A stretch of 57,255 nt of DNA, from the NCBI GenBank assembly GCA_012523265.1, contig JAAYIU010000162.1, forward strand, positions 1 to 57,255, written 5' to 3'. Made by a program: the position numbers and the translations under genes. Numbering within the stretch: position 1 is the first letter of the stretch; each line of letters begins with the position of its first letter. The stretch is from Bacteroidales bacterium (GTDB lineage Bacteria > Bacteroidota > Bacteroidia > Bacteroidales > 4484-276). This document shows, piece after piece, positions 3,605 through 53,233 of this stretch. The notes beneath the pieces are model-generated. The model did no database searches, was not told the DNA's origin, and saw nothing but the letters and a program-made list of their open reading frames with translations.

Positions 3605-3660
3605 TGTTTTTATCTTTTGTAATTTCTGTTCGCATCATATTCATACCATTATCCTTTTTA

Positions 3661-3727
3661 TTTGGGCTAAAGCCCGCTTATGATTATACAGCCTTCTGTC
3701 CCCGGCCTGAAGGCCGGGGTTAGTGAG
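3661..3727 (-). repeat. Two-hairpin REP-like element, copy 1
   Basis: TTTGGGCTAAAGCCC..N..CCCCGGCCTGAAGGCCGGGGTTAGTGA. It lies 50 nt downstream of the TonB-receptor stop, and the ATCACTAACC end is proximal to that stop. Confidence 0.85.
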
Positions 3728-3776
3728 CAGCAGGATGCATGGTTCATTATTTTCTTTCGGTTTAGGCGCTTCATTT

Positions 3777-6137
3777 TTAAAATTTAAAATTATAAGATAT
3801 ACTTGGTATCACCGAGAAGAGATAGGTCATCTCGGCGTAGGTCTGGTAGCCGCCGTCGCCGCTTTCCTGCACAAAATTGATGGCCCAGGGGTTTTTGCGT
3901 CCGTAGGCATTATATACCGAGAGGTTCCACTCGCCGTACCATTTGCGGTCGGGGTTCCGGCGCGGGCGCAAGGTCACCGACAGGTCGAGCCGGTGGTAGT
4001 CGGGCATGCGGTAGTCGTTGCGGTCGGAATAGATGGGCGCTACCACCCCACCCCACACCGCGCGACCTGTTGGAAAAGTAACGGGCAACCCGGTAGAATA
4101 AACCCAGTTAAGCCCGGCGCTCCAGCGTTGGCTTATATCGTAATTGATTACCACAGTGATATCGTTGGGCTTGTCGTAAGGAGCCACATATTTCTTCCCG
4201 TCGTTGATAGCTTCAATTTTACGTTCGGCTTTTGATAACGTATAACTAATCCAGCCGGTGAGATTTCCCTGCCTTTTCTGCACCATCAGCTCCAGGCCAT
4301 AGGCCCGTGAACGGCCAAAACGCAGCTCTGCTTCCAGCTCCCGGTTGAGGAGCAACTGCGCGTGGTCTTTAAAGTCGATGGTGTTTTGCATGTTTTTATA
4401 ATATACTTCAGCGGAAGCTTCAAACATGTTGTTATCAAAATTACGGAAATAGCCCAGCGCTCCCTGGTCGCTCACTTGCGGTTTCACATTGGGGCTTGCC
4501 GAAAACCAGATGTCGAGCGGCGTGCCGGCGGTAGAGTTTTGTCCGAGTTGCAAATATTGTATCGTTCGCGAATAGCTTCCCTTTACCGACGCCCGCTCGC
4601 TTAGCAAATACACAAAACCTATGCGCGGCTCCAGATGCGTATAAGTGTTGTAAACTTCGCCGGCGCGAATTGGCTCCCGCTCGACGATGTTATAATTTTC
4701 GTCGAAATGATAGAGTGTGTCGGCGCCCACATTTTGAAACATCGAAAACCGCAACCCATATTTTAGCCTAAGCAAAGCCCCTATCTTTTGCTCATTACTT
4801 GCATAAATTCCCGATTCGTACGCAAACTTGGATAGGATGTCGTAACTGTTCAGGAAAGTTTCGTCGCCGATGCCGCGCGCTTCGCCGGGGCTAAAAGTGT
4901 GATGGATGAGGCTTGCGCCAAAACGGATGGTGTTGTCGGTATTGAGAAACCAGGTGAAGTCGGCTTTGCCGCTGTAGTCGATAAGCTCCGATTTCCATTC
5001 AAAGGAGTTGGCCTCGCCTTCGGGAGTGCCCAGGCTATAGTCATAGCGCGAGCGCAGCAGGGTAAAATTGGAAAAGAGTTTTTTGCTAAAAAGATGATTC
5101 CAACGCAGGGTGAAGGTGCCGTTGCCCATATTCATACTTGCAAATTCATTTTTAAAAACATCGCGCCCCAGATAGGCAGAGAAAAACACACGGTTGTTTT
5201 CGTTGAAGGTGTGACTAATCTTAGCGTTCAGATCCCAAAAGAAGAGCTTGCTTCCCTGCAGGTCGTCGTTGCCAAAAAGCGGGATAAACAAGTCGGCATA
5301 GGTGCGGCGGCCGGAAACAATAAAGGAGGTATTCTCATCTGCTATCGGCCCTTCCAGAGTGAGACGGCTCGAGATAAGTCCGATGCCGCCGGTGGCTGCA
5401 AACTTTTGATTATTCCCATCCTTCATCCGCACATCGAGCAGCGACGACAGGCGGCCGCCATAGGCAGGCGGAATGTCGCCTTTGTAGAGTTTCACATCTT
5501 TGATGGCATCATTATTAAAAACCGAGAAAAATCCCAGCAGGTGGCCTGAGTTGTAAACGGTGGCTTCGTCGAGCAGCACCAGGTTCTGGTCGATGCTACC
5601 ACCCCGCACGCTAAAGCCGGTGCTGCCTTCCGACACGGTTTTTACGCCGGGCAGCAATTGTATGGCGCGGATCACATCCGTTTCGCCAAACAAAGCCGGA
5701 ATCTGGTCGATGGTTTTGGTCTCCATGCGCATCACGCTCATCTCGGCAGCGCGCACGTTGCGGTCGATGCGCTCGCCGCTGATCACCACTTCGTCGAGCT
5801 GCTGATCGACGGGCACAAGCCGCACATCGAGCGTGCGATCTATATCGAGCACCACTTTATGCTGCTGCGATTTGTAACCAATAAAAGAAAAGTTGAGCGT
5901 GTAATGTCCCGCCGGCAAACTCAAAGCATAAAACCCGTAAACATTGCTGCTCGCACCACTTTGGTTTTCGGTGATGTAAACGGTGGCGCCGATAAGCATT
6001 TCGCCGGTGCGGGCGTCGGAGATGTAACCGCTGATGTTGGGCTTCTTTACTTCACCATCCGGCTCTGCTGCCCTGCTGCACAGTGTCGAAAGAAGCGTCG
6101 CAAGCAGCAGGATAATTATTTTAAGATACATTTTCAT
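3777..6137 (-). CDS. TonB-dependent outer-membrane receptor with N-terminal carboxypeptidase-regulatory-like domain
   Basis: I prefer the start at MKMYLKIIILLLATLL (6137), which gives a signal peptide. Other features: ISGYISDARTGEMLIGATVYI (CarboxypepD_reg-like), a plug region, a long beta-barrel and a C-terminal ..SISYNFKF terminal Phe. The 6329 start adds 64 implausible residues. Confidence 0.85.
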   Translation of the reverse strand: MKMYLKIIILLLATLLSTLCSRAAEPDGEVKKPNISGYISDARTGEMLIGATVYITENQSGASSNVYGFYALSLPAGHYTLNFSFIGYKSQQHKVVLDIDRTLDVRLVPVDQQLDEVVISGERIDRNVRAAEMSVMRMETKTIDQIPALFGETDVIRAIQLLPGVKTVSEGSTGFSVRGGSIDQNLVLLDEATVYNSGHLLGFFSVFNNDAIKDVKLYKGDIPPAYGGRLSSLLDVRMKDGNNQKFAATGGIGLISSRLTLEGPIADENTSFIVSGRRTYADLFIPLFGNDDLQGSKLFFWDLNAKISHTFNENNRVFFSAYLGRDVFKNEFASMNMGNGTFTLRWNHLFSKKLFSNFTLLRSRYDYSLGTPEGEANSFEWKSELIDYSGKADFTWFLNTDNTIRFGASLIHHTFSPGEARGIGDETFLNSYDILSKFAYESGIYASNEQKIGALLRLKYGLRFSMFQNVGADTLYHFDENYNIVEREPIRAGEVYNTYTHLEPRIGFVYLLSERASVKGSYSRTIQYLQLGQNSTAGTPLDIWFSASPNVKPQVSDQGALGYFRNFDNNMFEASAEVYYKNMQNTIDFKDHAQLLLNRELEAELRFGRSRAYGLELMVQKRQGNLTGWISYTLSKAERKIEAINDGKKYVAPYDKPNDITVVINYDISQRWSAGLNWVYSTGLPVTFPTGRAVWGGVVAPIYSDRNDYRMPDYHRLDLSVTLRPRRNPDRKWYGEWNLSVYNAYGRKNPWAINFVQESGDGGYQTYAEMTYLFSVIPSISYNFKF

Positions 6138-8418: not shown

Positions 8419-9882
8419 ATGATCCGACGTATTATTCCCATTCTGATATCCTTTTCGCTGGCACTGCTGCTCGTGCTTTCTGCCTGTCGCAAAGACGACA
8501 CCATCAACAAAAGCCCGTCGGTGCGGCTTGAGTTCTCGTCCGACACGTTGATCTTCGACACCGTTTTTACTTCCATAGGCTCCATCACCGAACAGATTCG
8601 CGTGCGCAATACCAGCGATGAAAAAATCAATATTTCGCGCATAAAACTTGCCCGTGGCGCCGAATCGCGCTACAGCATCAACGTGAACGGCATGGCAGGC
8701 AACGATTTTCAAAATATCGAAATCCGCGGCAACGACAGCATCTACATCTTCGCCAAAGTTACCATCAACCCCAACGATGCCACCGCTCCTTTTGTCATCA
8801 CCGATTCCATCGTTTTTGATATCAATGGCAACCAACAGGATGTCGATTTGGTGGCCTGGGGGCAAAACGCACGCTACATCCTCTGGGACACCGACCGCCC
8901 CAATCTGCCACGCTACAAAATTGTGGCCGGCGAAGGCATCGATACTACCTGGACTAATGAACTTCCCATCGTTGTTTATGGCTATGCCGTAGTTGATTCT
9001 ACCGGCAGCCTCACCATCAATGCCGGCACAAAAGTGCATTTTCATAATGGCTCCGGATTGTGGATTTATAAAGGCGGCTCTCTTAAAGTAATGGGCACGC
9101 AGGAAGAACCCGTTTATTTCCAGGGCGACAGGCTGGAATCGTTTTATGCCGATCTGCCCGGACAGTGGGACCGCATCTGGATAAACGAAGGCGCAGTAGA
9201 TAATGTGATTAATTACGCTGTGATTCGCAATGGGTTTATCGGTTTGCAAGCCGAAACGCTTCAACAATACATGGGCAACCAGCTAACGCTCAGCAACACC
9301 ATCATCGAGAATATGTCGGGCGCGGGCATCCTCACGCGCTACTATGTGATTGCTGCACAAAACTGCGTTATCGCCAACTGCGGGCAATATGCGCTGGCAC
9401 TTACGCTGGGCGGCGCTTACGACTTCCGCCAAACACCCATAGCCAACTACTGGAATTATGGCGTGCGCAACACCGCTTCGGTATATCTCAACAACTATTT
9501 CCTCGACAAAAACTACCAGCCCGTAGCCTATCCCTTTGAGGCTTATTTCGGCAACAACATAATGTACGGCAGCCAACGCAACGAGCTGGTGATCGACGAC
9601 ACAGTGGCCGAATTTAAATATACTTTCGACCATTGCCTGATCAAAACAGAGATAAACATTGCGCAGGATTCTAATTTTATAAATAGTTTTAAAAACAAAG
9701 ACCCGCTCTTTGTGGATTATCGCCAAAACGACTTCCGTCCCGACAGCCTGTCGCCCGCCCTCGGTGTCGGCAGCCCCGGAGTAGCGGCTACTGTTCCTTT
9801 CGACATCAACGGCATTTCACGCACCGAAAGCCCCGACCTGGGTGCCTACCAATGGGTGCCTACTATTCCGCGGAGGAGATAG
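8419..9882 (+). CDS. Lipoprotein, probably with a right-handed beta-helix region; function unknown
   Basis: 487-aa ORF with lipoprotein signal LALLLVLSAC. Gly/Asn-rich repeats (TINAGTKVHFHNGSGLWIYKGGSL, IENMSGAGIL) are typical of parallel beta-helix proteins. Confidence 0.6.
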   Translation: MIRRIIPILISFSLALLLVLSACRKDDTINKSPSVRLEFSSDTLIFDTVFTSIGSITEQIRVRNTSDEKINISRIKLARGAESRYSINVNGMAGNDFQNIEIRGNDSIYIFAKVTINPNDATAPFVITDSIVFDINGNQQDVDLVAWGQNARYILWDTDRPNLPRYKIVAGEGIDTTWTNELPIVVYGYAVVDSTGSLTINAGTKVHFHNGSGLWIYKGGSLKVMGTQEEPVYFQGDRLESFYADLPGQWDRIWINEGAVDNVINYAVIRNGFIGLQAETLQQYMGNQLTLSNTIIENMSGAGILTRYYVIAAQNCVIANCGQYALALTLGGAYDFRQTPIANYWNYGVRNTASVYLNNYFLDKNYQPVAYPFEAYFGNNIMYGSQRNELVIDDTVAEFKYTFDHCLIKTEINIAQDSNFINSFKNKDPLFVDYRQNDFRPDSLSPALGVGSPGVAATVPFDINGISRTESPDLGAYQWVPTIPRRR

Positions 9883-10179: not shown

Positions 10180-11853
10180 ATGAAAAATCTATTTACAACT
10201 AAAACAGTTTGGATTGCTTTGATTGTGTTTCTTATCAGCAATCTTATGCAGGCACAGCCGCAGGGCGAATTCATCGCTACTGTTGGCAGTGCCGACAATG
10301 TGAAGAAAATCATCCTTCTCAACACACAGGATGGTACACTCATGTATGATGATTACATCATACTTACCAACTTTGGGCCCGGGACTGTGAAGCACGTTAT
10401 ACGTGTACAGGACGAGCTTTGGGTATCTGACCAGACCAAAGACAAAGTATATCGGATGAGTTTAACAGGTGACTCGCTGGGAGTAATTGGCGAAAGCGGT
10501 CTGGACAATTTGCGGGGCATGAACATTATCAATGGGCAGGTATGGCTGGGCAATGCAGGCTCTAACAATGGAGCGCCGGGTTATGCTGTAGTACAAATCG
10601 GACTTAACGGCACCATCATGGGCAACTTCCAGGTGAATGGCAGCCCGTGGATGTTTTTGCCTTACGCTGGCAACCATGCCCTTGTCAGCCTGTCGGATGC
10701 CGAGGGTAATCCGTCGCAAATTGCCGAATACGACCTGAATGGTAACTTCGTTGAATCCTGGAATGTGCCCGGTGAGATAAAATTTATCCAACAAATTTCT
10801 CAAACCGCCAATGGCAATTATCTGGCCGCTTCATTTTCCACGGGTGTTTATCCTTCGGGCATTCATCTCTACGACAGCCAGGGCAACTACCTGCAGATAA
10901 TTGGCGGAACTTCCGGTGGCGGCGCCAGAGGCTGCATAGAACTGGGAAACGGGAATATACTGTGGACCAACGGCCAGGGCATTCATCTTGCCGATGTAAC
11001 GGCCGGTACCAGCACGCTGATCTACGATGGTAGCTTTCAGTTTCTCGAAAAAATAACATTCGAGCCGGCGCCCGTCCTTGATCCGCCCACCAATCTTATG
11101 GCACAGCTTGATGGCAACACTGTTACATTAAGCTGGGATGCTCCGCCACCTACCGACCTTACCGGGTTTAAAATTTACCGCGACGAAGAGTTTCTGGCAG
11201 AAGTAGCTCTTGCGCCAACCACCTACGTGGACGAAGCTGTGCCGGCGGGTACGCATATTTATGGCGTATCGGCGGTGTATACCAATGGCGAATCACCCAA
11301 GGCCGGCCCGGTGATGATTACCATCGAGGGAGCCATTTATAAAATTCAGGGATTTGTCCGCGACGCCTACACCAACCTCTCCATCAGCGATGCCTGGGTA
11401 AGCACCACAAATACCGACAACGGAACCATCACCGCCGCAACACCCTTTGGCGCTCACTATGTGCTCTGGCTCAACACCGGCACCTATAATCTTACCTGTA
11501 CCGCTCAAGGCTACCTCAGTGAGACCACCGAAAACCTGGTGATCGAAGGCCAGTTGGTGTACAACCACGACTTCTACCTGCAGCCCACAACCGATGAACT
11601 GGCTACGGGAGTTTCCGGCAAAACGGCTACAACTGTACAGATTTACCCCAACCCGGCAAGAGATCACCTTACCGTAATGGGCAAGGATGTAAAAATTGTA
11701 GAAATCAGCAACCAGGAAGGCTGCTTAATGATCCAAAGCCGCCGCTCATCCGACAATCAAAAAATCGACCTTAGCACGATTCCGCCAGGTTTGTATTTTA
11801 TCAAAATCCAAACAAACACCCAAACCATCATTCAAAAACTTATTGTGAAATAA
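10180..11853 (+). CDS. Secreted multidomain protein with T9SS C-terminal sorting domain
   Basis: Start at MKNLFTTKTVWIALIVFLISNLMQAQ (signal peptide). A Fn3-like segment (DPPTNLMAQLDGNTVTLSWDAP) is followed by a CarboxypepD_reg-like segment. The C-terminus VQIYPNPARDHLTV..LYFIKIQTNTQTIIQKLIVK is a typical Por/T9SS tail. Confidence 0.8.
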   Translation: MKNLFTTKTVWIALIVFLISNLMQAQPQGEFIATVGSADNVKKIILLNTQDGTLMYDDYIILTNFGPGTVKHVIRVQDELWVSDQTKDKVYRMSLTGDSLGVIGESGLDNLRGMNIINGQVWLGNAGSNNGAPGYAVVQIGLNGTIMGNFQVNGSPWMFLPYAGNHALVSLSDAEGNPSQIAEYDLNGNFVESWNVPGEIKFIQQISQTANGNYLAASFSTGVYPSGIHLYDSQGNYLQIIGGTSGGGARGCIELGNGNILWTNGQGIHLADVTAGTSTLIYDGSFQFLEKITFEPAPVLDPPTNLMAQLDGNTVTLSWDAPPPTDLTGFKIYRDEEFLAEVALAPTTYVDEAVPAGTHIYGVSAVYTNGESPKAGPVMITIEGAIYKIQGFVRDAYTNLSISDAWVSTTNTDNGTITAATPFGAHYVLWLNTGTYNLTCTAQGYLSETTENLVIEGQLVYNHDFYLQPTTDELATGVSGKTATTVQIYPNPARDHLTVMGKDVKIVEISNQEGCLMIQSRRSSDNQKIDLSTIPPGLYFIKIQTNTQTIIQKLIVK

Positions 11854-14915: not shown

Positions 14916-14941
14916 GGTTTCTTTTTTATTTTAAATAACAC

Positions 14942-15160
14942 TACTAACCGATTAAATTGATGGCGTTAGTTTTAGATTCTTCACTTCACTTCGTTTCGTT
15001 CAGAATGACAGTGGTTTAGGGACGTAAGTGAGGGGTGGGTGGCGGCGAAGCCGCCACCCACCCCTCACTCCCACAAATACACGAAAAACCTTGTCATTCT
15101 GAGCGTAGCAGCCTGCCCCGACTTTTCGGGGAAGAATCTAAAATTTTTACTCGGTCAGTA
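14942..15160 (+). mobile_element. MITE-like 219-bp element, copy A (terminal inverted repeats, central GC-rich palindrome)
   Basis: TIRs are TACTAACCGATTAAA and TTTTTACTCGGTCAGTA. The central palindrome is GAGGGGTGGGTGGCGGCGAAGCCGCCACCCACCCCTC. Inverted GTCATTCTGA modules are present. TTTAAATAACA flanks both ends (14930-14940 and 15164-15174). A second, inverted copy lies at 28807-29015. Confidence 0.7.
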
Positions 15161-15226
15161 TTGTTTAAATAACAATGGTTCCAATCGAAAGTTGCAGGGT
15201 AAATTCCTCTGCTGACAATAAAAAGA

Positions 15227-16855: not shown

Positions 16856-18274
16856 TCACGAATTATTTTTTGTGAGTGGCGTTAATCCGTGGGCACTTCC
16901 AATCTCGAGCATCAATTGCCAGGCCTGCTCAAGGCTGTTGTCGATGCGGCCATCGAGAATGGCTTCGCGGATGGCTGTTTTTATCTCGCCCACAATCCTT
17001 CCGGGCTTAATGCCAAAAGTTTCCATGATAAGCTCACCGCTGATGGGTGGCTGCCAGTTGCGCAGGCGGTCTTTCTCTTCTATCTCCACCAGTTTGTGAC
17101 GCACCAGCTCAAAATTTTTGCGGTAACGCCTGATTTTCTCCGGTATCTTCGACGACATGTCGGCCTCGCACAAAGTCATCAGGTCGTCGATGTCGTCGCC
17201 GGCATCGAAGAGCAGGCGGCGTATGGCCGAATCGGTCACCAGCTCTTCGGAGAGGACGATGGGTCGCAGATGCAACAGCACCAGCTTTTGTACGTATTTG
17301 AGCTTCTCGCCGGCAGGCAGCTTCAGGCGTCTGAAAATGGCAGGCACCATTTTGGCGCCCACAAAGTCGTGCCCGTGGAAAGTCCAGCCAACGCCATCCG
17401 CCCAGCGTTTGGTGCGCGGCTTGCCGATGTCGTGCAGGATGGCAGCCCACCGCAGCCAGAGATTGTCGGATGCTGCAGCCACATTATCCAAAACTATCAG
17501 CGTGTGATAGAAATTATCTTTATGACCAATATTATCCTTGTATTCGGCACCCTGAAGTGCCACCATCTCCGGAAAAATAAGTTGCAACAAACCCGTGTCG
17601 AAGAGCAGCCTGAAACCCGTCGAAGGTTTTTCGGCCATAATAATTTTGTTGATCTCGTCGGTGATGCGCTCCTGCGAAATGATGCTGATGCGATGTGCGT
17701 TGCGTGCGATGGCCTCGAAGCTCTTCTGTTCGATGGTGAAACCCAGCCGTGTGGCAAACCGGATGGCGCGCAGCATGCGCAACGGATCGTCGGAATAGGT
17801 GATATCGGGGTTGCGCGGTGTGCGGATGATCTTTCTCTCGAGGTCGCCGGCGCCGTCGAAGGGGTCGATGAGACGGCCGTAATCCTCTTTGTTGAGGCTG
17901 ATGCTCATGGCGTTGATGGTGAAATCGCGCCGCTGCTGATCGTCTTCCAGGGTACCATCTTCCACAATGGGATTGCGCGAGGTGCGCTGGTACGATTCCC
18001 GCCGCGCTCCCACAAATTCTATCTGCCAGTCGTGATAGCGCAGCATGGCGGTGCCGTAATTTTTAAAAACCTGCACATGTTCATTTCCAATCTTGCGTCC
18101 TACGGCCTGCGCCAATTCAATACCGTGACCCACCACCACAATGTCGATATCCTTGCCGGGGTTGCCCAGCAAAAGATCGCGCACAAAACCACCCACCACA
18201 TAGGCAGGGAGGTTCATTTGATGGGCTGTATCTGATACAAGTTCAAAAACAGGATGTCGTAGCTGTGACTTCAC
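16856..18274 (-). CDS. tRNA nucleotidyltransferase (CCA-adding) / poly(A) polymerase family protein with HD domain
   Basis: YVVGGFVRDLLLGNPGKDIDIVV (NTase GG..DxD), RRDFTINAM, DPLRMLRAIRFA, and HD region ILHDIGKP..HGHDFVGA. Confidence 0.85.
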   Translation of the reverse strand: MKSQLRHPVFELVSDTAHQMNLPAYVVGGFVRDLLLGNPGKDIDIVVVGHGIELAQAVGRKIGNEHVQVFKNYGTAMLRYHDWQIEFVGARRESYQRTSRNPIVEDGTLEDDQQRRDFTINAMSISLNKEDYGRLIDPFDGAGDLERKIIRTPRNPDITYSDDPLRMLRAIRFATRLGFTIEQKSFEAIARNAHRISIISQERITDEINKIIMAEKPSTGFRLLFDTGLLQLIFPEMVALQGAEYKDNIGHKDNFYHTLIVLDNVAAASDNLWLRWAAILHDIGKPRTKRWADGVGWTFHGHDFVGAKMVPAIFRRLKLPAGEKLKYVQKLVLLHLRPIVLSEELVTDSAIRRLLFDAGDDIDDLMTLCEADMSSKIPEKIRRYRKNFELVRHKLVEIEEKDRLRNWQPPISGELIMETFGIKPGRIVGEIKTAIREAILDGRIDNSLEQAWQLMLEIGSAHGLTPLTKNNS

Positions 18275-27624: not shown

Positions 27625-28812
27625 ATGAACGACGATCTGCAAGATTTCCTGAAAGCCATATCTGAAAGTTTTGAAACCAACACCCTCGTCAAACTTACCC
27701 TTAGCAAAGTGCGCAGCAAATCGGCTGACCTGCGCAATACTTTGGTGCGTCCGGTGATCATCAAAGAGTTGCTGCAGCTTAGCTTCGTGTATCGCTACCA
27801 AACCCGCGACATCACCGAAAACCTGTCCATTGACCTGGCGTTACCAAAAATAGAAGAGTCGCTCACCAACGACTTTTACCAAGGCAACCTTTTTACGACG
27901 CAGGAAGAAATACAGTGGGTTATTAATAAAAAAGGAAGCTCGCGGCTTACCCGCTCCGACGCTGGCAACACAGCACCGCTACTGCAGCCGCTCAGCCACA
28001 ACCGCCCCAAGCAGCGCCTCATCACGCCCGAAAATAACATTTACCTGCAAGCGCTCGGCATCACCAACAGCCGCTCGGAAGTGGTGCCCGCCATGAACGA
28101 TAAGTTCCGCCAGATCAATAAATTTATCGAAATCATCGAAAGCATCCTGCCCGCCTCCCCTCCCACCGGACTTTTTAAAGTTGCCGATATGGGCTCCGGC
28201 AAAGGCTACCTCACCTTTGCGCTTTATGACCATCTTACCAATAACCGAAATTTTAAAGCTGTTATCACAGGCGTGGAAATGCGGCCAGAGCTTGTGGAGA
28301 AATGCAATACCATAGCCAAACAAAGCGGTTTTGAGGGCTTGCAATTTGTCAGCGGCACCATTCAGGAATTTCAGCCGGGAAAGATAGAAATGCTTATCGC
28401 TTTGCATGCCTGCGATACCGCCACCGACGACGCCATAGCCACGGGCATCCGCGCCGGCGCCGCCACCATCATCGTGGCGCCCTGCTGCCACAAACAGGTG
28501 CGCCGTGCCATGACGCCTCCTCCGGCGCTCCGCCCCATGCTCGACCACGGCATCTTTGCCGAACGACAGGCCGAGATGCTCACCGATGCGCTGCGGGCAC
28601 TGCTGCTCACAAGGCACGGCTACCAGGTAAAAACCCTCGAATTTATTTCGAGCGAACACACCCCCAAAAATGTAATGATCGTCGCCGTGCGTTCCGGTAA
28701 AAAAGTAGCGGTTGCCCGAATAGAAAAACAAATCGCCTTGCTCAAAAAAACCTTTGGCATCGAATATCATTATCTGGAAACGCTGCTGGCGGAAGAAAAA
28801 AATCAATACTGA
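27625..28812 (+). CDS. Class I SAM-dependent methyltransferase (Methyltransf_32-like)
   Basis: VADMGSGKGYLTFALYDHL (SAM motif I), IALHACDTATDDAI, IVAPCCHKQ. The final Tyr codon and the TGA stop lie inside the MITE-like element. Confidence 0.7.
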   Translation: MNDDLQDFLKAISESFETNTLVKLTLSKVRSKSADLRNTLVRPVIIKELLQLSFVYRYQTRDITENLSIDLALPKIEESLTNDFYQGNLFTTQEEIQWVINKKGSSRLTRSDAGNTAPLLQPLSHNRPKQRLITPENNIYLQALGITNSRSEVVPAMNDKFRQINKFIEIIESILPASPPTGLFKVADMGSGKGYLTFALYDHLTNNRNFKAVITGVEMRPELVEKCNTIAKQSGFEGLQFVSGTIQEFQPGKIEMLIALHACDTATDDAIATGIRAGAATIIVAPCCHKQVRRAMTPPPALRPMLDHGIFAERQAEMLTDALRALLLTRHGYQVKTLEFISSEHTPKNVMIVAVRSGKKVAVARIEKQIALLKKTFGIEYHYLETLLAEEKNQY

Positions 28813-29015
28813 CCGACTAAAAATTATAGATTCTTTCCCGAAATTTCGGGACTCAGAATGACAAGGTTTTTCGTGTATTTGTGGGGGCGAAGGGGTGGGT
28901 GGCGGCTTCGCCGCCACCCACCCCTTCGCCTACGCCCCTAAACAACTGTCATTCTGAACGAAACGAAGTGAAGTGAAGAATCTAAAACTATCACCATCAA
29001 TTTAATCGGTCAGTA
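28807..29015 (-). mobile_element. MITE-like 209-bp element, copy B (inverted relative to copy A)
   Basis: TACTGACCGACTAAAAA...TTTAATCGGTCAGTA. The same internal modules as 14942-15160 are present in reverse order, including GGGGTGGGTGGCGGCTTCGCCGCCACCCACCCC and GTCATTCTGAACGAAACGAAGTGAAGTGAAGAATCTAAAAC. Confidence 0.7.
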
Positions 29016-29072
29016 ATGGAAAAAATGAAAATTAATAAAATCCCAACCTACTCATCTCTAACGGCTTTGCTG

Positions 29073-31541
29073 CTATGCCCTTTGTTTTTCTTTGCTTAAA
29101 AAGCGATAAGCAAGCAGCTTGATGCCATCGGTTATGAGAAACCAAACTATGGCATAGCCCCATACAAACCCTGCCCAGCCCCAGCCAAGCGGCGTCATAA
29201 ACAGCCCGTAAACCGCTATGAAGGTTGCCAAAATTTGTGTGCCCAGCACTGATATCCAAAGCGCCTTTGCCGGACGTATCGACCAGAATGATCCACGGGT
29301 TCGTGCGAGAAAAATAGTGAGATGTCCGGCTACCGACAACATCAGATACATCAGCGTTTGAATATGCGGACGATCGAGATGAAATACACGCTCACCCAGA
29401 TAAAACAATCCAAAAGCGGCCACCGGCCCTACAAGCCCCAACACTGTGGCAATTCCCAAAACAAGTCGCATATCCCAGACCTCAGGTTTGTTTTGGTAAC
29501 GCACATTGTCGTAGGCAATGGAGAGGATGGCGCCATCATTGAGTAGAGCCAGCATCACGATCATCACAGCCGTTAAAGGATAGAAATTAAAGATAAGGAT
29601 GGCCAGCGTCATAAATATTAAAACGCGTAAGGTTTCAGAAATGCGATAGATAGCGTAGCTGTTCATCCGCTGGAAAATGCGCCGGCTCTCTTTGATAGCG
29701 TCAATAATTATGGAGAGGCCGGTTTTTGTGAGTACGATAGAAGCAGCGCTCCTTGCCGCGTCGGTTGCCCCCGAAACGGCAATGCCACAATCGGCCTTTT
29801 TTAATGCGGGGGCATCATTTACACCATCACCGGTCATGCCTACAATGTGACCGAGTTTTTGCAATACATCCACAATATGAAACTTGTGCTCCGGGAAAAC
29901 CTGCGCAAAACCGTCAGCCTTGGCGATAGCTTCGCCAGCCTCTTGGGTCTCGTTGTGTTTTACATCGCCCAGGCTGCTGGCATCCATGATGTTTGAACCC
30001 ATCTTTAGTTTTTTTGCAGTTTCGCGGGCAATATCCAGCGCATCTCCGGTAACCATTTTAATTTTTACGCCCATTTTTAGCGCAGTAGCTATGGTTGCTG
30101 CTGCATCCTCGCGCGGTGGATCGAACAAGGGCAAAACACCAATAAACTGCCATTGCCCATCACCATCATCACGAGCCACGCCCAACGAACGATAGCCGCG
30201 CGCTGCAAAATCACTAACTGCTTTATCAACTTTAGTTTTAACTTTATTGGCATTGGCCGATAATTGCAATATTACCTGTGGCGCACCTTTGGTAACTTTA
30301 AAAGTTTTTCCATCGCCATCTTTAACTTTGGCCTCGGTACGTTTGTGTACCGGGTCGAATGGCTGAAAATGGAGAATTTCGTAATCTTTCAGCGTATTTT
30401 TGTCCTCCACACTTTCTAATATGGCCAGGTCGATGGTATCGTTATTTTCGGCACGTGAAGCCAAAGCCCCACACAAAATAACCTGATCCACAGTAATATC
30501 GTCTAAGGTAAAAGTCTCGCCCAACGTCAGTTTATTTTGCGTAAGCGTGCCGGTTTTGTCGGCACACAGCACGTCCACACCTGCCAGTTCTTCTATGGCC
30601 ACCAACTTACTTACTATTGCCTTTTTTTTGGCGAGTGTGCGCGCGCCAACCGCCATGGTTATTGATAATACCGTAGGCATTGCCACCGGAATAGCGGCCA
30701 CGGTAAGTACCAGTGCAAACTGCAAAGTAGTGAGCAGGGCATCTCCCCTGAATAAAGCAACTGTGATGATAATTGCCACCAACACAATTGCCAGAACAAT
30801 AAGATAATTGCCAATTTTTAAAACAGCCTTCTGAAAATGGCTTGTATTGTTTGCCTCCTGAACCAACCGGGTGGTTTTACCAAAATAAGTATTTGCACCC
30901 GTAGCATACACCAAAGCTTCTGTTTCGCCCCGTCGCATGATCGATCCTGAAAAGACAGCCTCGCCAGGCTCGCGGGTTGCAGGCAACGATTCGCCGGTAA
31001 GTGCCGATTGATCAACGTCCACCGCGTCACCCTCAAGCAGGCGCGCATCCGCTGGTACAATGTCGCCCAACCGCAGGCGGATGACATCTCCCGGAACCAA
31101 CTCACGCGATGCCGGGGTGATCCATTTCCCGTCGCGCTTGGCCCTGGCCTTGATGGCAAGTTTGGGTTTCAGGGCAGCGATGGCATTGCCCGCCTCGTGT
31201 TCTTCGTAATATCCCACTACTGCATTTACCAGAAGCAAGATTAGAATGATAAAAAAATCGGGCCACCGCCCATCCACGGCCGAAAGTATTACCGCTACCT
31301 CAATCATCCAGGGTATTGGCCCCCAAAAATACGACAGGAACTTCAGAAGCATGTTGGTCTTCTTTTCCGCAATTTCGTTAGCGCCGTATTGCGCCAGCCG
31401 TTTTTTGGCTTCCTGGTGGCTAAGGCCATTAGGCGACGAACCTAACTTTTCCCAAAGTTGCGGCATAGGAATAGATTTCAGATCGTCGTTTGAGTGTATT
31501 TCTTCTTCTGAAGTTTCCGGTTGATGATCATCTGTTTTCAT
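29073..31541 (-). CDS. P-type ATPase, plasma-membrane H+-ATPase-like (P3A subfamily)
   Basis: LTGESLP (actuator TGES), CADKTGTLTQNKLTL (phosphorylation site), MVTGDALDIA, GMTGDGVNDAPALKKADCGIAV. 822 aa with ~10 TM segments. Confidence 0.8.
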   Translation of the reverse strand: MKTDDHQPETSEEEIHSNDDLKSIPMPQLWEKLGSSPNGLSHQEAKKRLAQYGANEIAEKKTNMLLKFLSYFWGPIPWMIEVAVILSAVDGRWPDFFIILILLLVNAVVGYYEEHEAGNAIAALKPKLAIKARAKRDGKWITPASRELVPGDVIRLRLGDIVPADARLLEGDAVDVDQSALTGESLPATREPGEAVFSGSIMRRGETEALVYATGANTYFGKTTRLVQEANNTSHFQKAVLKIGNYLIVLAIVLVAIIITVALFRGDALLTTLQFALVLTVAAIPVAMPTVLSITMAVGARTLAKKKAIVSKLVAIEELAGVDVLCADKTGTLTQNKLTLGETFTLDDITVDQVILCGALASRAENNDTIDLAILESVEDKNTLKDYEILHFQPFDPVHKRTEAKVKDGDGKTFKVTKGAPQVILQLSANANKVKTKVDKAVSDFAARGYRSLGVARDDGDGQWQFIGVLPLFDPPREDAAATIATALKMGVKIKMVTGDALDIARETAKKLKMGSNIMDASSLGDVKHNETQEAGEAIAKADGFAQVFPEHKFHIVDVLQKLGHIVGMTGDGVNDAPALKKADCGIAVSGATDAARSAASIVLTKTGLSIIIDAIKESRRIFQRMNSYAIYRISETLRVLIFMTLAILIFNFYPLTAVMIVMLALLNDGAILSIAYDNVRYQNKPEVWDMRLVLGIATVLGLVGPVAAFGLFYLGERVFHLDRPHIQTLMYLMLSVAGHLTIFLARTRGSFWSIRPAKALWISVLGTQILATFIAVYGLFMTPLGWGWAGFVWGYAIVWFLITDGIKLLAYRFLSKEKQRA

Positions 31542-31708: not shown

Positions 31709-32398
31709 ATGAATTTGTACGGAAAAAAATCTAAAAGCATCCCGCAAAAAGTCATCATTATAGTGATAGAAATATTGCTGCTCTGGTGGTCGTACCGGAT
31801 TTTATTTATGGACGAAGGCACAACGCTGCTTAGGCTCATCGGGATAGATCAAAGCGCCGGAAACTTCCAGGTACGGGCAGTCATTTTTACTTTTTCTATT
31901 ATCGTTTTTTTAAGGATGACTTTCATGATAACCTATCTGCTCAAGCGAAAAATACCGTGGCAAGAAAGCATAAGCGTGCCATTTGCTTTTGCGCTCTATT
32001 TTGTTGGCTTTGCCCTTTTGGGATATGGAAGAGCTTCTGCCCCGGATTGGATCGACGTTATTGCCATCTTTCTTTTCATCTTCGGTTCATTTCTCAATAC
32101 CGGATCAGAACTACAAAGGCATTTTTGGAAAAAACATCCGGAAAATACAGGCAGATTATTTACCAGCGGTTTGTTTGGTTACTCCATGCACATCAATTAT
32201 TTCGGCGATCTGCTATGGGTCACCGCTTACGCGATAATTACCAGAAACCTTTATGCAGCCATCATCCCGATATTCCTGTTTTGCTTCTTCGTCTTTTTCA
32301 ACATTCCAAAATTGGATTGCTACCTTTGGAAAAAATACACCCCTCAGTTTGACCAGTATCGCAGGAAGACCAAAAGCTTTATTCCGTTCATTTACTGA
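31709..32398 (+). CDS. DUF1295 / ICMT-steroid reductase-like membrane methyltransferase-fold protein
   Basis: 229 aa, multi-TM. The C-terminal part LFTSGLFGYSMHINYFGDLLWVTAYA is typical of DUF1295/PEMT-ICMT-like proteins. Confidence 0.55.
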   Translation: MNLYGKKSKSIPQKVIIIVIEILLLWWSYRILFMDEGTTLLRLIGIDQSAGNFQVRAVIFTFSIIVFLRMTFMITYLLKRKIPWQESISVPFAFALYFVGFALLGYGRASAPDWIDVIAIFLFIFGSFLNTGSELQRHFWKKHPENTGRLFTSGLFGYSMHINYFGDLLWVTAYAIITRNLYAAIIPIFLFCFFVFFNIPKLDCYLWKKYTPQFDQYRRKTKSFIPFIY

Positions 32399-32664
32399 AA
32401 GCCAATTTGATTTAATTTGGTTTCGAAATTAGAAATTGTGCAAGGCTATCTCTCGTCCAAATTATTTTTGGGAGGAATGATAGTTTTCATTTTACACCCA
32501 GGGCTTGGTTATCAACAATTTGTTAGTACCGCTTTCGCTAAAAATCTGCTCTGTAATCAACTGCGAAAAGCCTTCCGGCGTTATCAACGATTGTTGAAAA
32601 ACCTGGTTGATAACCGGTGAATTAAAAACACAGAAAAAGCTTGGCTGGTACCAGAAACTCGCTG

Positions 32665-32672
32665 TATATTTG
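32665..32672 (+). promoter_or_regulatory. Candidate -7 promoter box (TATATTTG) with TTG 21 nt upstream; would drive the ORF-free unit below
   Basis: TAnnTTTG match at 32665-32672, with TTGG at 32641-32644. Confidence 0.35.
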
Positions 32673-32679
32673 TCGCATC

Positions 32680-33241
32680 AGGCCAGAGATAAAAAGTTAG
32701 CATGGCATGAATGGGGACAAAGGACGAAAGCCCTGAAATCCCTGGGAAAACGAAACGCAGGCATTCATTTGCCGGTTCGACAATAACCAGTTCTTTAAAA
32801 ATCCTTTAGCCCGCCCAACCCACAACTATCTTCTGATAGCGGTGCCGGCTTGCAAGAGCCGGGATGTTTTCGCAAACATTGTTGCCGCGGCCATCAACAC
32901 TGCAAAGCACCTCGTGTGCCGCGCTACGCTGATGAGGAAATGGAACCAGGACACCACTTGCGGAGGATTCCGTACCAGGAACTTACTTCAAACGGTGTCA
33001 GATCGCAGCCTCGTTCCACGGAACAACTTAGTCAGCGGTCTTCACAAAATGCTCTGGTTGGCACCACTTCTTGTCTTCACCGACAGCAAGCCGCCAGCCA
33101 GGCTCCACATCAGGCACCCTCACTGAATGCCTCGCGAGGAGCAACTACAATATCAGTAACCTGACGCGAAACACCCTGCCACGGCAGCGTGCCTAGCGAA
33201 CGGGAATCCATTCGACCAGAATAGATTCCCGTTTTGTTTTT
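32680..33241 (+). ncRNA. Candidate ~560-nt non-coding transcript (unclassified) ending in an intrinsic terminator, upstream of nikR
   Basis: No credible ORF on either strand. GC content looks like coding sequence rather than the AT-rich spacers elsewhere. Several stable local hairpins are present, including a GNRA-looped stem at 32845-32862. A promoter-like box lies upstream and a terminator at the 3' end. Confidence 0.35.
33201..33241 (+). terminator. Rho-independent terminator
   Basis: CGGGAATC..(ATTC-GACCA-GAAT)..GATTCCCG is followed by TTTTGTTTTT. Confidence 0.65.
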
Positions 33242-33385
33242 ACAGACTAAACCTTGCTAAAGCTTTGTTCTCCCCACTTTCCACAAACCGCTCTATCCTA
33301 CCCGCTTAGCGCCCTGCGCTCCGCGCCCCGCATTTAAATCCTTTCTAAATTTTATCCCCAATGGCTTTCGCCAAAAAAATGCAAC

Positions 33386-33393
33386 TACTTTTG
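33386..33393 (+). promoter_or_regulatory. Candidate -7 promoter box (TACTTTTG) for nikR
   Basis: TAnnTTTG match 28 nt upstream of the nikR ATG. Confidence 0.35.
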
Positions 33394-33419
33394 TGGCACG
33401 AATTATAAAAAGGTGCTAC
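33393..33419. promoter_or_regulatory. Inverted repeat GTGGCAC-N13-GTGCTAC, candidate NikR (auto)operator
   Basis: 6/7 inverted match spanning 27 bp between the -7 box and the nikR start codon. The span is similar to the 28-bp E. coli NikR operator (GTATGA-N16-TCATAC), but the half-site sequence differs. Confidence 0.25.
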
Positions 33420-33420
33420 T

Positions 33421-33819
33421 ATGACATTGAAAAGATTTGGCGTTTCGCTCGAAGAAAATCTGCTCGAAGACCTTGATCAACTTGTCGAAAACCGGAAGTT
33501 TCCCAACCGCTCGCAGGCTATCCGCTTCCTGATATCACAATCCAAAACCGAAGCGTTGTGGCTCGACGACCAGGAGGTGGCCGGCGCCATCGTGCTGGTG
33601 TACGACCACCACAAAAAGGATTTACAAATGCACGCTACCGAAATCCAGCACGATTACCACGAACTCATCCTCTCGGTACAGCATGTACACCTCGATCACA
33701 GCAACTGCCTGGAAACAATAGCTGTGAAAGGAAAAGCCACACAACTGCAGGCGCTGGCCAACCGGCTGATTGCCCTCAAGGGAATAAAACATGGCCAGCT
33801 GGTGATGAGCCGCACCTGA
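33421..33819 (+). CDS. nikR: Nickel-responsive transcriptional regulator NikR
   Basis: 132 aa. The N-terminal ribbon-helix-helix is KRFGVSLEENLLEDLDQLVENRKFPNRSQAIRFLI. The C-terminal metal-binding domain carries VLVYDHH..HDYH..HVHLDHSNCLE His/Cys ligand positions. Confidence 0.85.
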   Translation: MTLKRFGVSLEENLLEDLDQLVENRKFPNRSQAIRFLISQSKTEALWLDDQEVAGAIVLVYDHHKKDLQMHATEIQHDYHELILSVQHVHLDHSNCLETIAVKGKATQLQALANRLIALKGIKHGQLVMSRT

Positions 33820-33928
33820 TGAAATTCCAAAAAACAAAAACACAATCATAGGTAGCAGGTGTAAATAATGAAAAACAAATTTCAAAATAGAAAGAGATGG
33901 CTCTGAAATGGAATTTTGTTGCCAGGCG

Positions 33929-33998
33929 ATCACTAACCCTGGCCTTTAGGCCGGGGGTAAAAGACGAAAAAAATTCAGTGGGCTTTAGCCCAAATAAA
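33929..33998 (+). repeat. Two-hairpin REP-like element, copy 2
   Basis: ATCACTAACCCTGGCCTTTAGGCCGGGGGTAAAAGACGAAAAAAATTCAGTGGGCTTTAGCCCAAATAAA, 110 nt after the nikR stop. Confidence 0.85.
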
Positions 33999-37041: not shown

Positions 37042-37076
37042 TTTTTCATTTGAAATGGCGCTGAGATAGCCAAATG

Positions 37077-37146
37077 ATCACTAACCCCGGCATTTATGCC
37101 GGGGCTAAAAGACGAAAAAAACTCAGTGGGCTTTAGCCCAAATAAA
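37077..37146 (+). repeat. Two-hairpin REP-like element, copy 4
   Basis: ATCACTAACCCCGGCATTTATGCCGGGGCTAAAAGACGAAAAAAACTCAGTGGGCTTTAGCCCAAATAAA, 36 nt after the ABC ATPase stop. Confidence 0.85.
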
Positions 37147-51724: not shown

Positions 51725-51790
51725 TTTGGGCTAAAGCCCATTGATTTTTTTTGCCTTTTCACCCCCGGCCTAAAGGCCGGGGTTAGTGAT
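51725..51790 (-). repeat. Two-hairpin REP-like element, copy 5
   Basis: TTTGGGCTAAAGCCCATTGATTTTTTTTGCC..CCCCGGCCTAAAGGCCGGGGTTAGTGAT. It lies 8 nt downstream of the mtaB stop. Confidence 0.85.
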
Positions 51791-51797
51791 TAATTGG

Positions 51798-53075
51798 CTA
51801 AAGACCAATGATGATCGGGTCGTCGCCATCTTCTAAAGAAATTAATTGCACATCCACGAAAGTGTTGGGCTGCGCCTGATGCGTAGGGAATTTCACCGGC
51901 ACATAAAGCTCTCCGTATCCCTGCGCCATGCCGCTGTCGATTTTTTCGATCAATACCCGCTGCTTTTTCCCGATAAGGGATTCGCGAAAGCGTCGTTTTT
52001 CGGCATCTGCTACCTGGCGCAGCAGCTCGCTGCGCCGGGTTTTTTCTTTTTCACTTACGTGATCGGACATCCGCTCGGCGCGGGTGTTTTTCCTTATGGA
52101 ATATTTAAAAGTGTGGACGTGACCGAAGTTGAGCGCTTTTACAAGCCGGAGCGTTTCGTCAAAATCCTGCTGCGTTTCGCCGGGAAATCCAACTATTATA
52201 TCTGTGGTAAAATTGAAAAGCGGGTAACGCGTGCGCACTTTCTCTACTATTTGGCGAAAGCCTGCAACCGAATACATGCGGCGCATGGCAAGCAAAATCT
52301 TGTCGGAGCCGCTTTGCAGGCACAGGTGCATGTGGGGCGTTAGTTTGGGATGATCGAAAAGATCGAACAGCTTGTCGCCAAAGCCGTCGGGTTCGATAGA
52401 GCCGATACGCAGTCGGAAGTCGCCTGGCAGCGCCAGAATGCCCGCCACCAAATCTTCAAAATTCAAACCTTCTGCATCGTACCTCCCGATATTGACGCCG
52501 GTGAGCACGATTTCTTTATAGCCAAATTCCACCACGCGGCTGATGTTGTCGTAGATTTCCTGCGGCTTGCGGCTGATGGCCCGACCCCGCACACGCGGTA
52601 TAATGCAAAATGTGCAGAAGTTGTCGCAGCCATCCTGAATTTTTATCCAGCTGCGTGTATGGAAAGTTTCGCGTGCCGGCTCATAATTGAAAAGCGCCGG
52701 GTCGAAGCTGTCGGGATGCACCACCTCGCCCTTATAATGGCCGTCGATAAGCTCGAAGATGGAGCTTTTGTGTTCGTTATCCACAAACCAGGTAACGTTG
52801 GGTTGCTGCTGTTCGAGGTGCTCGCGGTGGTTGTTCACCATGCAGCCCGTCACCACCAGCATGGCATCGGTGTGTTTTTTGGCTGCCTGGTTGATCACCT
52901 GGCGCGACTTGCTGTCGCTTTGGTTGGTAACGGTGCAGGTGTTGATCACCACCACGTCGGCGGCATCTTCAAAATCGACCACCTGATAGCCGCTGCTGCT
53001 AAAGCGCGAAGCCAGCGAATCGGTCTCAAACTGATTGAGTCGGCAACCCAGGGTTTTGAAAGCTATTTTTTTCAT
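51798..53075 (-). CDS. mtaB: tRNA (t6A37) methylthiotransferase MtaB (radical SAM MTTase)
   Basis: MKKIAFKTLGCRLNQFETDS (UPF0004 N-domain), CDNFCTFCIIP (CxxxCxxC), and a C-terminal TRAM-like segment. Confidence 0.8.
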   Translation of the reverse strand: MKKIAFKTLGCRLNQFETDSLASRFSSSGYQVVDFEDAADVVVINTCTVTNQSDSKSRQVINQAAKKHTDAMLVVTGCMVNNHREHLEQQQPNVTWFVDNEHKSSIFELIDGHYKGEVVHPDSFDPALFNYEPARETFHTRSWIKIQDGCDNFCTFCIIPRVRGRAISRKPQEIYDNISRVVEFGYKEIVLTGVNIGRYDAEGLNFEDLVAGILALPGDFRLRIGSIEPDGFGDKLFDLFDHPKLTPHMHLCLQSGSDKILLAMRRMYSVAGFRQIVEKVRTRYPLFNFTTDIIVGFPGETQQDFDETLRLVKALNFGHVHTFKYSIRKNTRAERMSDHVSEKEKTRRSELLRQVADAEKRRFRESLIGKKQRVLIEKIDSGMAQGYGELYVPVKFPTHQAQPNTFVDVQLISLEDGDDPIIIGL

Positions 53076-53144
53076 CTGATAAAAATCGAATTCGGCTTTG
53101 ATACATCAGTATCTTTCCATGAACTCATCATAACATTCTATTTA

Positions 53145-53208
53145 TTTGGGCTAAAGCCCAATAAATTTTTTTGTCTTTCCACCCAGCCTAAAGGCCAGGG
53201 TTAGTGAT
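53145..53208 (-). repeat. Two-hairpin REP-like element, copy 6
   Basis: TTTGGGCTAAAGCCCAATAAATTTTTTTGTC..CCCAGCCTAAAGGCCAGGGTTAGTGAT. It lies 26 nt downstream of the miaB stop. Confidence 0.85.
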
Positions 53209-53233
53209 CAGTTGGCTATAAAAAACGCAACAT

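Follow-up and report, generated by a model that had tools for sequence, protein, structure and literature searches.

Bacterial non-coding RNAs (ncRNAs) that exceed 500 nt and have their own promoter and terminator are, to our knowledge, rare, and OLE, GOLLD, ROOL and raiA proved to be architecturally or functionally unusual. Here we describe an element of ~565 nt that is probably a new, lineage-restricted, stand-alone bacterial ncRNA gene matching no known family. It lies in a 57,255-nt stretch of the Bacteroidales bacterium contig JAAYIU010000162.1, referred to as the window, in a spacer between a gene for a DUF1295 protein and nikR. The element was compared with its counterparts in fetched relative loci, 92 in all, which are designated by L-numbers (L011, L077, L091 and so on).

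Intergenic small RNA (sRNA) genes of Bacteroidota are one class of described elements with which it can be compared, although ~565 nt is long for an intergenic sRNA. Like GibS of Bacteroides thetaiotaomicron (PMC7366714) and other genes of this class, the element has its own predicted sigma-ABfr promoter and a Rho-independent terminator, has no credible open reading frame (ORF) and is conserved within a narrow clade only. It differs from them in composition, with a GC content of ~52%, whereas ~35% has been reported for Bacteroides intergenic sRNAs (PMC7366714), and in architecture, being predicted to consist mostly of hairpins, whereas intergenic sRNAs combine a single-stranded seed with a terminator. 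The large RNAs OLE, GOLLD, ROOL, raiA and HEARO (PMC12286853, PMC10861870) resemble it in their length of more than 500 nt, in their many stable hairpins and in their GNRA- and UNCG-type loops, and the element, like them, is conserved in sequence beyond the needs of pairing. It differs from these RNAs in that none of their covariance models finds it, even at E ≤ 10, and in having no tRNA, phage or mobile-element neighborhood, and it lacks the breadth and the covariation support of OLE, GOLLD, ROOL and raiA. With the leaders that carry NiCo or cobalamin riboswitches it shares only a position upstream of nikR and a btuF-like ABC transporter operon, and this in one species. Unlike metal riboswitch leaders, it has no Rfam riboswitch match, and both a terminator and the nikR promoter intervene.

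The spacer between the DUF1295 gene (31709-32398) and nikR (33421-33819) comprises 1022 nt without a called gene, and gene callers found no gene in it in any of 10 public contigs of the same species. A first-pass annotation of the window had put this spacer at ~1 kb and had described within it a promoter-to-terminator unit with no credible ORF, a candidate large structured ncRNA or leader. The unit was borne out. A stretch of ~565 nt is bracketed by a putative promoter of the proposed Bacteroidota type (TAnnTTTG at 32665-32672 on the + strand; a sigma-70-type scan returned TTGGCT-18-TATATT at 32641-32670) and by the expected intrinsic terminator, whose arms (33199-33213 and 33219-33233) are 93% complementary and are followed by a U-tract. 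The coding-like GC content of the stretch was also evident, at 0.50-0.565 over 32700-33200 vs 0.36-0.41 in the 400 nt before it, and its uniqueness was confirmed by the absence of a further copy in the window. The description as a discrete non-coding unit, conserved and with local structure, stood, and the role as a leader of nikR did not.

The pattern of conservation in relatives is, judging from the alignments, that expected of a stand-alone RNA gene. The homologous block is 32505-33245 of the window (741 bp), with abrupt edges on both sides. Compared with L077, which comes from a sister species, the segments of the block and its flanks are as follows:

32399-32504, left spacer, 106 nt that are unalignable with L077 (35% identity)
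32505-32647, + strand, conserved non-coding upstream region, 87% identity to L077 and to L091
32648-32662, promoter spacer, 33% identity to L077
32663-32680, -7 box and start, 100% identity to L077 and to all other copies
32681-33198, RNA body, 91% identity to L077
33199-33245, terminator, 96% identity to L077
33246-33300, right flank, 25% identity to L077

Homology with both L077 and L091 stops at 33241-33245. The break falls just after the terminator, and beyond it the downstream neighbor is nikR in the window, a cassette of cargo genes of the type IX secretion system (T9SS) in L077, and a peptidase M49 gene in L091. On the other side, the element is located directly 3′ of the DUF1295 gene in L077-L080 and L087-L090 (the sister species, with 84% amino acid (aa) identity in DUF1295) and also in L091, which represents a closer lineage than L077. 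Two short contigs, L083 and L092, contain the 5′ part only, so the comparison is based on three full-length copies (window, L077 and L091) and two 5′ fragments. Between the window and L077, 8.9% of the sites in the RNA body differ, vs 25% and 33% of the fourfold-degenerate sites of the adjacent genes, and the variable sites are clustered (dispersion index of 2.0 vs 0.85 expected; P<0.001). The element was found only in about three species-level lineages of Bacteroidales, all of them closely related, Lentimicrobiaceae-like and from anaerobic digesters. A metagenome scan with a degenerate pattern of the 5′ end returned the same species only, and a NikR-based contig search gave 66 loci, none of which has the element beyond the terminator and promoter. 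A spurious ORF inside the element occurs on about as many contigs as the same-species DUF1295 gene, which supports a single copy. In contig JAQUBL010000018.1 of the assembly GCA_028686755.1, this copy is positioned at about 17288-18028.

The element has no conserved coding potential. As had been noted in the first-pass annotation, the only ORFs of at least 60 aa inside the unit are the overlapping 32842..33126 and 32850..33164 (94 and 104 aa), and the minus strand has none of that length, its longest being 43 aa. Substitutions between the window and L077 are distributed over the three codon phases as 10/14/11 in the element vs 22/13/49 in DUF1295. Three 1-nt indels relative to the sister species break the frames, and the ORF ends differ. 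No small ORF under protein-level constraint was found in the element: those with a shared stop change 7 of 22 residues or are frame-shifted. The ORF frame in the upstream region lacks a start codon in L077, and by our own count in the alignment 10 of its 37 residues are different. None of the ORFs of the element had a Pfam match, and the read-through translation of frame +1, the most open one (212 aa), matched no protein at E ≤ 10. When the 104-aa ORF was compared with 1.84 billion representatives using HMMER, only one low-complexity protein and P0122 were returned, the latter being a spurious ORF of 41 aa that had been called in the sister species, inside its orthologous copy of the element. 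A six-frame concatenated protein query yielded no homologue among the matches listed, but it carries little weight and was discounted because it also missed this known spurious ORF. The word-indexed search misses the 41-aa cluster representative, and the hunt for homologues through spurious ORFs therefore gave the sister species only. The suspicion of a decayed gene, which had been raised together with the unit, found no protein homologue in the cleanly searched frames, the other frames being less well covered.

Comparisons with known RNA families were likewise negative. The recommended Rfam check placed the element in no known family, as there were no matches to Rfam 15 in the whole window at gathering thresholds. 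At E ≤ 10, the region and two orthologues gave only chance-level matches, the best being tfoR with 23 bits vs a gathering threshold of 70, over the terminator. No Rfam 15 threshold was reached for OLE, GOLLD, ROOL, HEARO, RNase P, signal recognition particle (SRP) RNA, 6S RNA, riboswitches, or group I and II introns, and ARAGORN detected no tRNA or tmRNA, in agreement with the earlier impression that tmRNA, RNase P, SRP and cobalamin-riboswitch signatures are missing. Phage and plasmid blastn searches and three viral-contig scans gave no match. A mobile element, either a miniature inverted-repeat transposable element (MITE) or an insertion sequence, was considered and rejected. The element is single-copy in the window and in each contig and has no terminal inverted repeats at its edges, and the sole long-range inverted repeat (71%) falls outside the conserved block. 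Our search of the literature on ncRNAs in Lentimicrobium or T9SS found nothing relevant.

The predicted start of the unit is defined by two boxes, which are located as follows:

32640-32672, + strand, promoter, with the -33-like CTTGGCTGG at 32640-32648, a spacer at 32648-32662 and the -7 box TATATTTG at 32665-32672

The consensus of sigma-ABfr promoters is TAnnTTTG at -7 and TTTG near -33 (PMC7366714). In the element, TTGG is positioned 21 nt upstream of the -7 box, and across five sequences both boxes are conserved while the 15-nt spacer is scrambled. The unit would thus have its own promoter of the sigma-ABfr type, its activity being predicted. The motif CTTGGYTGG-N16-TAnnTTT was found once in the 57-kb window, and elsewhere among the 92 fetched loci it was found solely before T9SS cassette genes that adjoin the element. 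The motif matches are the following:

32640-32671 of the window, at the promoter of the element
4898-4929 of L077, before T9SS cassette genes
10390-10421 of L087, before T9SS cassette genes

Since the promoter motif is common to the element and the T9SS cassette genes, regulation shared with the cargo genes is suggested, and the two are possibly co-regulated. The upstream region contains GTTATCAAC repeats at 32508-32516 and 32580-32588 with an inverted copy at 32606-32614, and an inverted repeat formed by GCTTTCGC and GCGAAAAGC at 32531-32538 and 32563-32571, the center of which is variable. These repeats are probably binding sites for a regulator, i.e. a putative operator. The hairpin that can be drawn at 32575-32617 loses three of its pairs in L077 and therefore probably represents a motif of the DNA and not a stem of the RNA. 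A 22-nt piece of the upstream region, CGCTTTCGCTAAAWATYTGCTC at 32530-32551, recurs ~100 nt upstream of the M49 gene in L091 (5598-5621) and more weakly (84% over 19 nt) on the -33 side of the nikR promoter (33364-33382). This recurrence may reflect a shared operator or a recombination scar. Taken with the recurring 22-nt piece, the conservation of ~135 bp of repeat-containing DNA suggests regulated transcription.

Within the predicted transcript, the hairpins that stand out in the fold and in the alignment are the following:

32679-33243, + strand, predicted ~565-nt non-coding transcript, with its start placed by the -7 box and its end by the U-tract
32825-32840, + strand, hairpin CUAUC-UUCU-GAUAG, with the compensatory pair 32827/32838
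32845-32880, + strand, two adjacent 7-bp hairpins, CCGGCUU-GCAA-GAGCCGG (GNRA loop) and GAUGUUU-UCGC-AAACAUU, with a free energy (ΔG) of -15.8 kcal/mol
33013-33024, + strand, hairpin GUUC-CACG-GAAC, which is GUUU-UACG-AAAC in L091 and in L077 changes in the loop only, to UACG
33056-33099, + strand, long near-invariant hairpin GGUUGGC...GCCAGCC with the inner stem CUU.GUC-loop-GAC.AAG, ΔG of -18.1 kcal/mol, z-score (z) of -4.3
33102-33142, + strand, hairpin GCUCC...GGAGC with the inner stem AGGCA/UGCCU, both stems being kept in L091
33165-33198, + strand, hairpin CAC-CUGC-CACG-GCAG-GUG inside CGC/GCG, with the loop CACG in the window and UACG in L077
33198-33243, + strand, intrinsic terminator, with a stem at 33198-33234 and the U-tract UUUUGUUUUU, ΔG of -20.2 kcal/mol, z of -5.8

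The three local hairpins that had been picked out by eye (32845-32862 with its GCAA loop, 33013-33024 and 33176-33187) fold as claimed. The long-range pairing of ATGAATG (32707) with CATTCAT (32763), proposed alongside them, has to be abandoned, as it lies outside both the minimum free energy (MFE) and consensus structures and is broken by changes in L077. Two further pairings were rejected. The MFE pairing of 32743-32756 with the U-tail of the terminator is probably an A-rich/U-tail artefact and was for this reason not counted among the pairs, and the 9-nt complementarity of 32759-32767 with 33124-33132 is not conserved. The adjacent hairpins at 32845-32880 account for 55% of the ensemble. 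The first of them is invariant in the three lineages, and the sole changes in the second are U-A to U.G and one loop change. The hairpin at 33056-33099 has one substitution across three lineages, located in the loop, and in the hairpin at 33102-33142 the tip (33116-33133) is entirely replaced in L091 with retention of both stems. The terminator is both the right-hand edge of the element and a module that is reused at the locus. It was not listed by a simple terminator scan, presumably because its stem contains an internal loop. For the full length of 565-576 nt, the fold z of the + strand is -4.3 (100 shuffles) or -3.5 (20 shuffles), and the consensus-fold z is -6.0. On this strand the loops read GCAA, GAAA/GAGA and UACG, and only here does a U-tract follow the terminator hairpin.

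The substitutions that separate the copies spare the predicted stems. When the changes in L077 are mapped on the MFE structure of the window, they break 11 pairs vs 18.1 ± 2.5 for base-matched random placement (5 of 2000 permutations). In the fold of a majority-rule ancestor, 21 of the 73 lineage-specific changes fall in paired bases, where ~38 are expected, and the individual lineages contribute 6/23, 8/26 and 7/24 (~12-14 expected for each). Changes in the window lineage break 4 pairs vs 9.5 expected (P=0.009), and those in L091 break 4 vs 7.6 expected (P=0.03). Compensatory change is observed in two stem pairs. At 32827/32838, a U-A pair of the window corresponds to C.A in L091 and to C-G in L077; at 33016/33021, the window and L077 have C-G and L091 has U-A, a double change.

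The history of the locus links the element with DUF1295 and not with nikR. In L088 the gene order is methyltransferase, DUF1295, element, four T9SS-type genes (~5.4 kb), nikR and ABC transporter. A 35-nt exact terminator core occurs twice in L087 and L088, after the element and after the last T9SS gene, and in L087 the terminator, promoter and cassette are tandemly duplicated with a period of 5.49 kb (4722-5059 and 10216-10551). In L088, another strain, the cassette terminator and the nikR promoter are separated by a tandem array of 6.2 units of 58 nt (10318-10677). In L012 the last T9SS gene, 93% identical to that of L077, is located just upstream of nikR, and in L011 a remnant of a T9SS C-terminal tail precedes the terminator module. 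The region that belongs to nikR itself is delimited as follows:

33246-33420, + strand, nikR upstream region, outside the element, with its own promoter (-7 box TACTTTTG at 33386-33393)

The nikR -7 box is conserved in all lineages. The whole region (33246-33420) is common to L011, and 33331-33420 is common to L012 and L088, none of which has the element at that position. L011 (NikR 96% identical) shares only 33185-33420 with the window, i.e. the terminator module and the nikR upstream region, and L012 (NikR 91%) shares only 33331-33420. The comparison of spacers upstream of nikR in relatives, which the first-pass annotation had advised, thus found the element absent in L011, L012 and L088. 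Its suggestion of a metal-linked regulatory RNA, drawn from the adjacency of nikR, is contradicted by the synteny. The simplest reading of these sequences is that the two terminator copies recombined in the window lineage and that the cassette was thereby lost. The element most likely belongs with DUF1295, its adjacency to nikR being a deletion accident in the window species, and the association with nickel is regarded as accidental because the cassette would have lain between the two ancestrally and nikR has its own -7 box. Guilt by association with the nickel regulon would in that case have misled.

L011 (SABY01000004.1) is titled 'Clostridia bacterium' and is 90% identical over 5.6 kb to the nikR operon of the window; it is probably mis-binned. 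A P-type ATPase gene (29073-31541, minus strand) marks a second indel of this neighborhood: it separates the methyltransferase gene from the DUF1295 gene in the window and L091, and the sister species lacks it, its methyltransferase and DUF1295 genes being direct neighbors.

On these comparisons we read 32505-33245, with moderate confidence, as a stand-alone, probably regulated gene on the + strand for a trans-acting structured RNA. Transcription would start at ~32679 from a sigma-ABfr-type promoter with ~135 bp of conserved repeat DNA, a probable operator, upstream of it. The RNA would fold into a chain of stable hairpins, several with GNRA or UNCG-type tetraloops, end at ~33243 at the strong intrinsic terminator and presumably act in trans as a regulatory or protein-binding RNA. 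Ancestrally the element would have been placed just upstream of a T9SS cargo cassette with a similar -33/-7 promoter and the same terminator module, and loss of the cassette in the window species would have left the RNA gene beside nikR by accident. If transcribed and structured, it would add an orphan large RNA from uncultured, industrially important Lentimicrobiaceae of anaerobic digesters, and a link to the T9SS cargo cassettes, if true, would be the first hint of RNA-level regulation tied to them. A bolder version, in which the element is the founding member of a new class of large structured trans-acting RNAs in Lentimicrobiaceae that share the CTTGGYTGG-N16-TAnnTTT promoter type with neighboring T9SS cargo cassettes and take part in the control or biogenesis of the proteins secreted from these, seems to us a long shot. 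The narrow distribution limits the immediate impact to modest, while the size and the structure-sparing evolution of the element make it attractive.

Several observations weigh against a stand-alone RNA gene. Only three full copies and two 5′ fragments were found, and no copy follows DUF1295 in L081 (83% aa identity) or in the more distant relatives L085 and L086, so the element is not essential to the clade. The conservation and covariation analysis that had been proposed succeeded in its first half, the block being conserved in L077 and L091; with three sequences the covariation does not reach significance, its score being attained in 104 of 500 shuffles, and 139 of the 156 predicted pairs are invariant. 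The one-sided stem changes that would give G.U pairs are equally many on the two strands (five each, by our own count). The minus strand folds equally well, with a fold z of -4.4 and a consensus-fold z of -5.5. Among 36 background stretches of the same length in the window, four reach a fold z of -3.9 or lower (mean -0.66, sd 1.64; 20 shuffles), and thermodynamics alone are therefore suggestive and not decisive. Transcription of DUF1295 may read through into the element, since no intrinsic terminator was seen in the sequence that separates the two. In the RNA body (32681-33198) the three copies are nearly equidistant (9.5%, 8.9% and 10.7%), and in a comparison of the window with L091 the conservation of the element does not exceed that of silent sites. 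Because of this equidistance, part of the apparent constraint could be recombination history.

The equidistance is the main reason why we retain, as unlikely yet worth keeping in view, the explanation that the element is a non-functional relic, i.e. a decayed gene or a mobile or recombined fragment that drifts neutrally and looks conserved through recent shared origin. The copies are 9-11% apart, which is close to the 10-14% by which fourfold sites of the ATPase and methyltransferase genes differ between the window and L091. Fourfold divergence between these two, 1.3% in DUF1295, 9.6% and, in the methyltransferase, 14%, spreads from 1.3 to 14% between adjacent genes and thereby suggests mosaic recombination in the region. 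Fourfold divergence to L077 is 25-34%, and the flanking genes group the window with L091, unlike the equidistant element. Mosaic recombination, or a faster rate in the two cassette-less lineages, is a possible explanation of the equidistance. The narrow distribution, the lack of significant covariation and a fold z that is not unique in the window would also suit a relic. However, no protein similarity was seen in the frames tested, the element occurs in one copy, and its edges lack terminal inverted repeats. Neutral drift would also have to account for substitutions that are strongly clustered and that avoid the predicted stems after control for base identity, for a mismatch in one stem that is repaired differently in two lineages, and for promoter boxes that are constrained around a free spacer.

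We consider it improbable that the element is a long cis-acting leader with an attenuator for the T9SS cargo cassette, orphaned in the window species. This explanation draws on the position of the element directly upstream of the cassette in the sister species, on the terminator module that closes both, and on our own estimate that, measured against the neutral rate, substitution in the element seems faster in the two lineages that have no cassette. Against it, a promoter-like motif of the cassette's own lies ~130 nt past the terminator of the element and is duplicated with the cassette in L087. The terminator is strong (ΔG of -20 kcal/mol), and no obvious anti-terminator pairing was seen. In addition, the promoter, stems and terminator are intact in two lineages with other downstream genes, and changes in the window lineage still spare the stems (P=0.009).

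It is more doubtful still that the block is a long structured 3′ untranslated region of the DUF1295 mRNA, or an RNA processed from that mRNA. In its favor, the element is always directly 3′ of DUF1295 on the same strand, and the scan found no intrinsic terminator in the stretch that leads from the DUF1295 stop codon to the element. The explanation is at odds with the promoter-type conservation inside the block, where an invariant -7 box and a conserved -33 side flank a scrambled spacer, and with the 60-106 nt after the DUF1295 stop, which are unconstrained. L081 and more distant DUF1295 genes also lack the element.

A functional transcript on the minus strand is very improbable. This strand is G/U-rich and folds as well as the + strand or better, and half of the one-sided stem changes would, by our own count, give wobble pairs there, but neither the block nor its immediate surroundings contain a TAnnTTTG box on this strand, the right flank, which would have to supply the promoter, differs in all three contexts, and the U-tract and the GNRA/UNCG loops read properly on the + strand only. 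A role in the nikR operon as a leader or regulatory RNA linked to nickel or another metal, which has the adjacency to nikR in the window species and nothing else in its favor, is hardly credible given that L011 and L012 keep the nikR promoter region without the element, that the 5.4-kb cassette and the 58-nt tandem array separate the element from nikR in L088, that the element is found without nikR in L077 and L091 and is followed by the M49 gene in the latter, and that a strong terminator and the -7 box of nikR part the two units.

Other intergenic repeats were observed in the window. Two inverted intergenic copies, at 28801-29018 and 14939-15166, are 86.5% identical over 230 nt and include a palindrome at 28886-28930; the 565-nt stretch that begins at 28801 has the lowest fold z in the window, -5.5. 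A repeat of ~75 nt that resembles repetitive extragenic palindromic or MITE sequences and contains GGGCTTTAGCCC is present at 33928-33998 and 37076-37145, on the minus strand at 3657-3729, 51725-51800 and 53139-53219, and in L011 at 8626-8708. All of its copies are located in intergenic spacers, one of them between nikR and the binding-protein gene.

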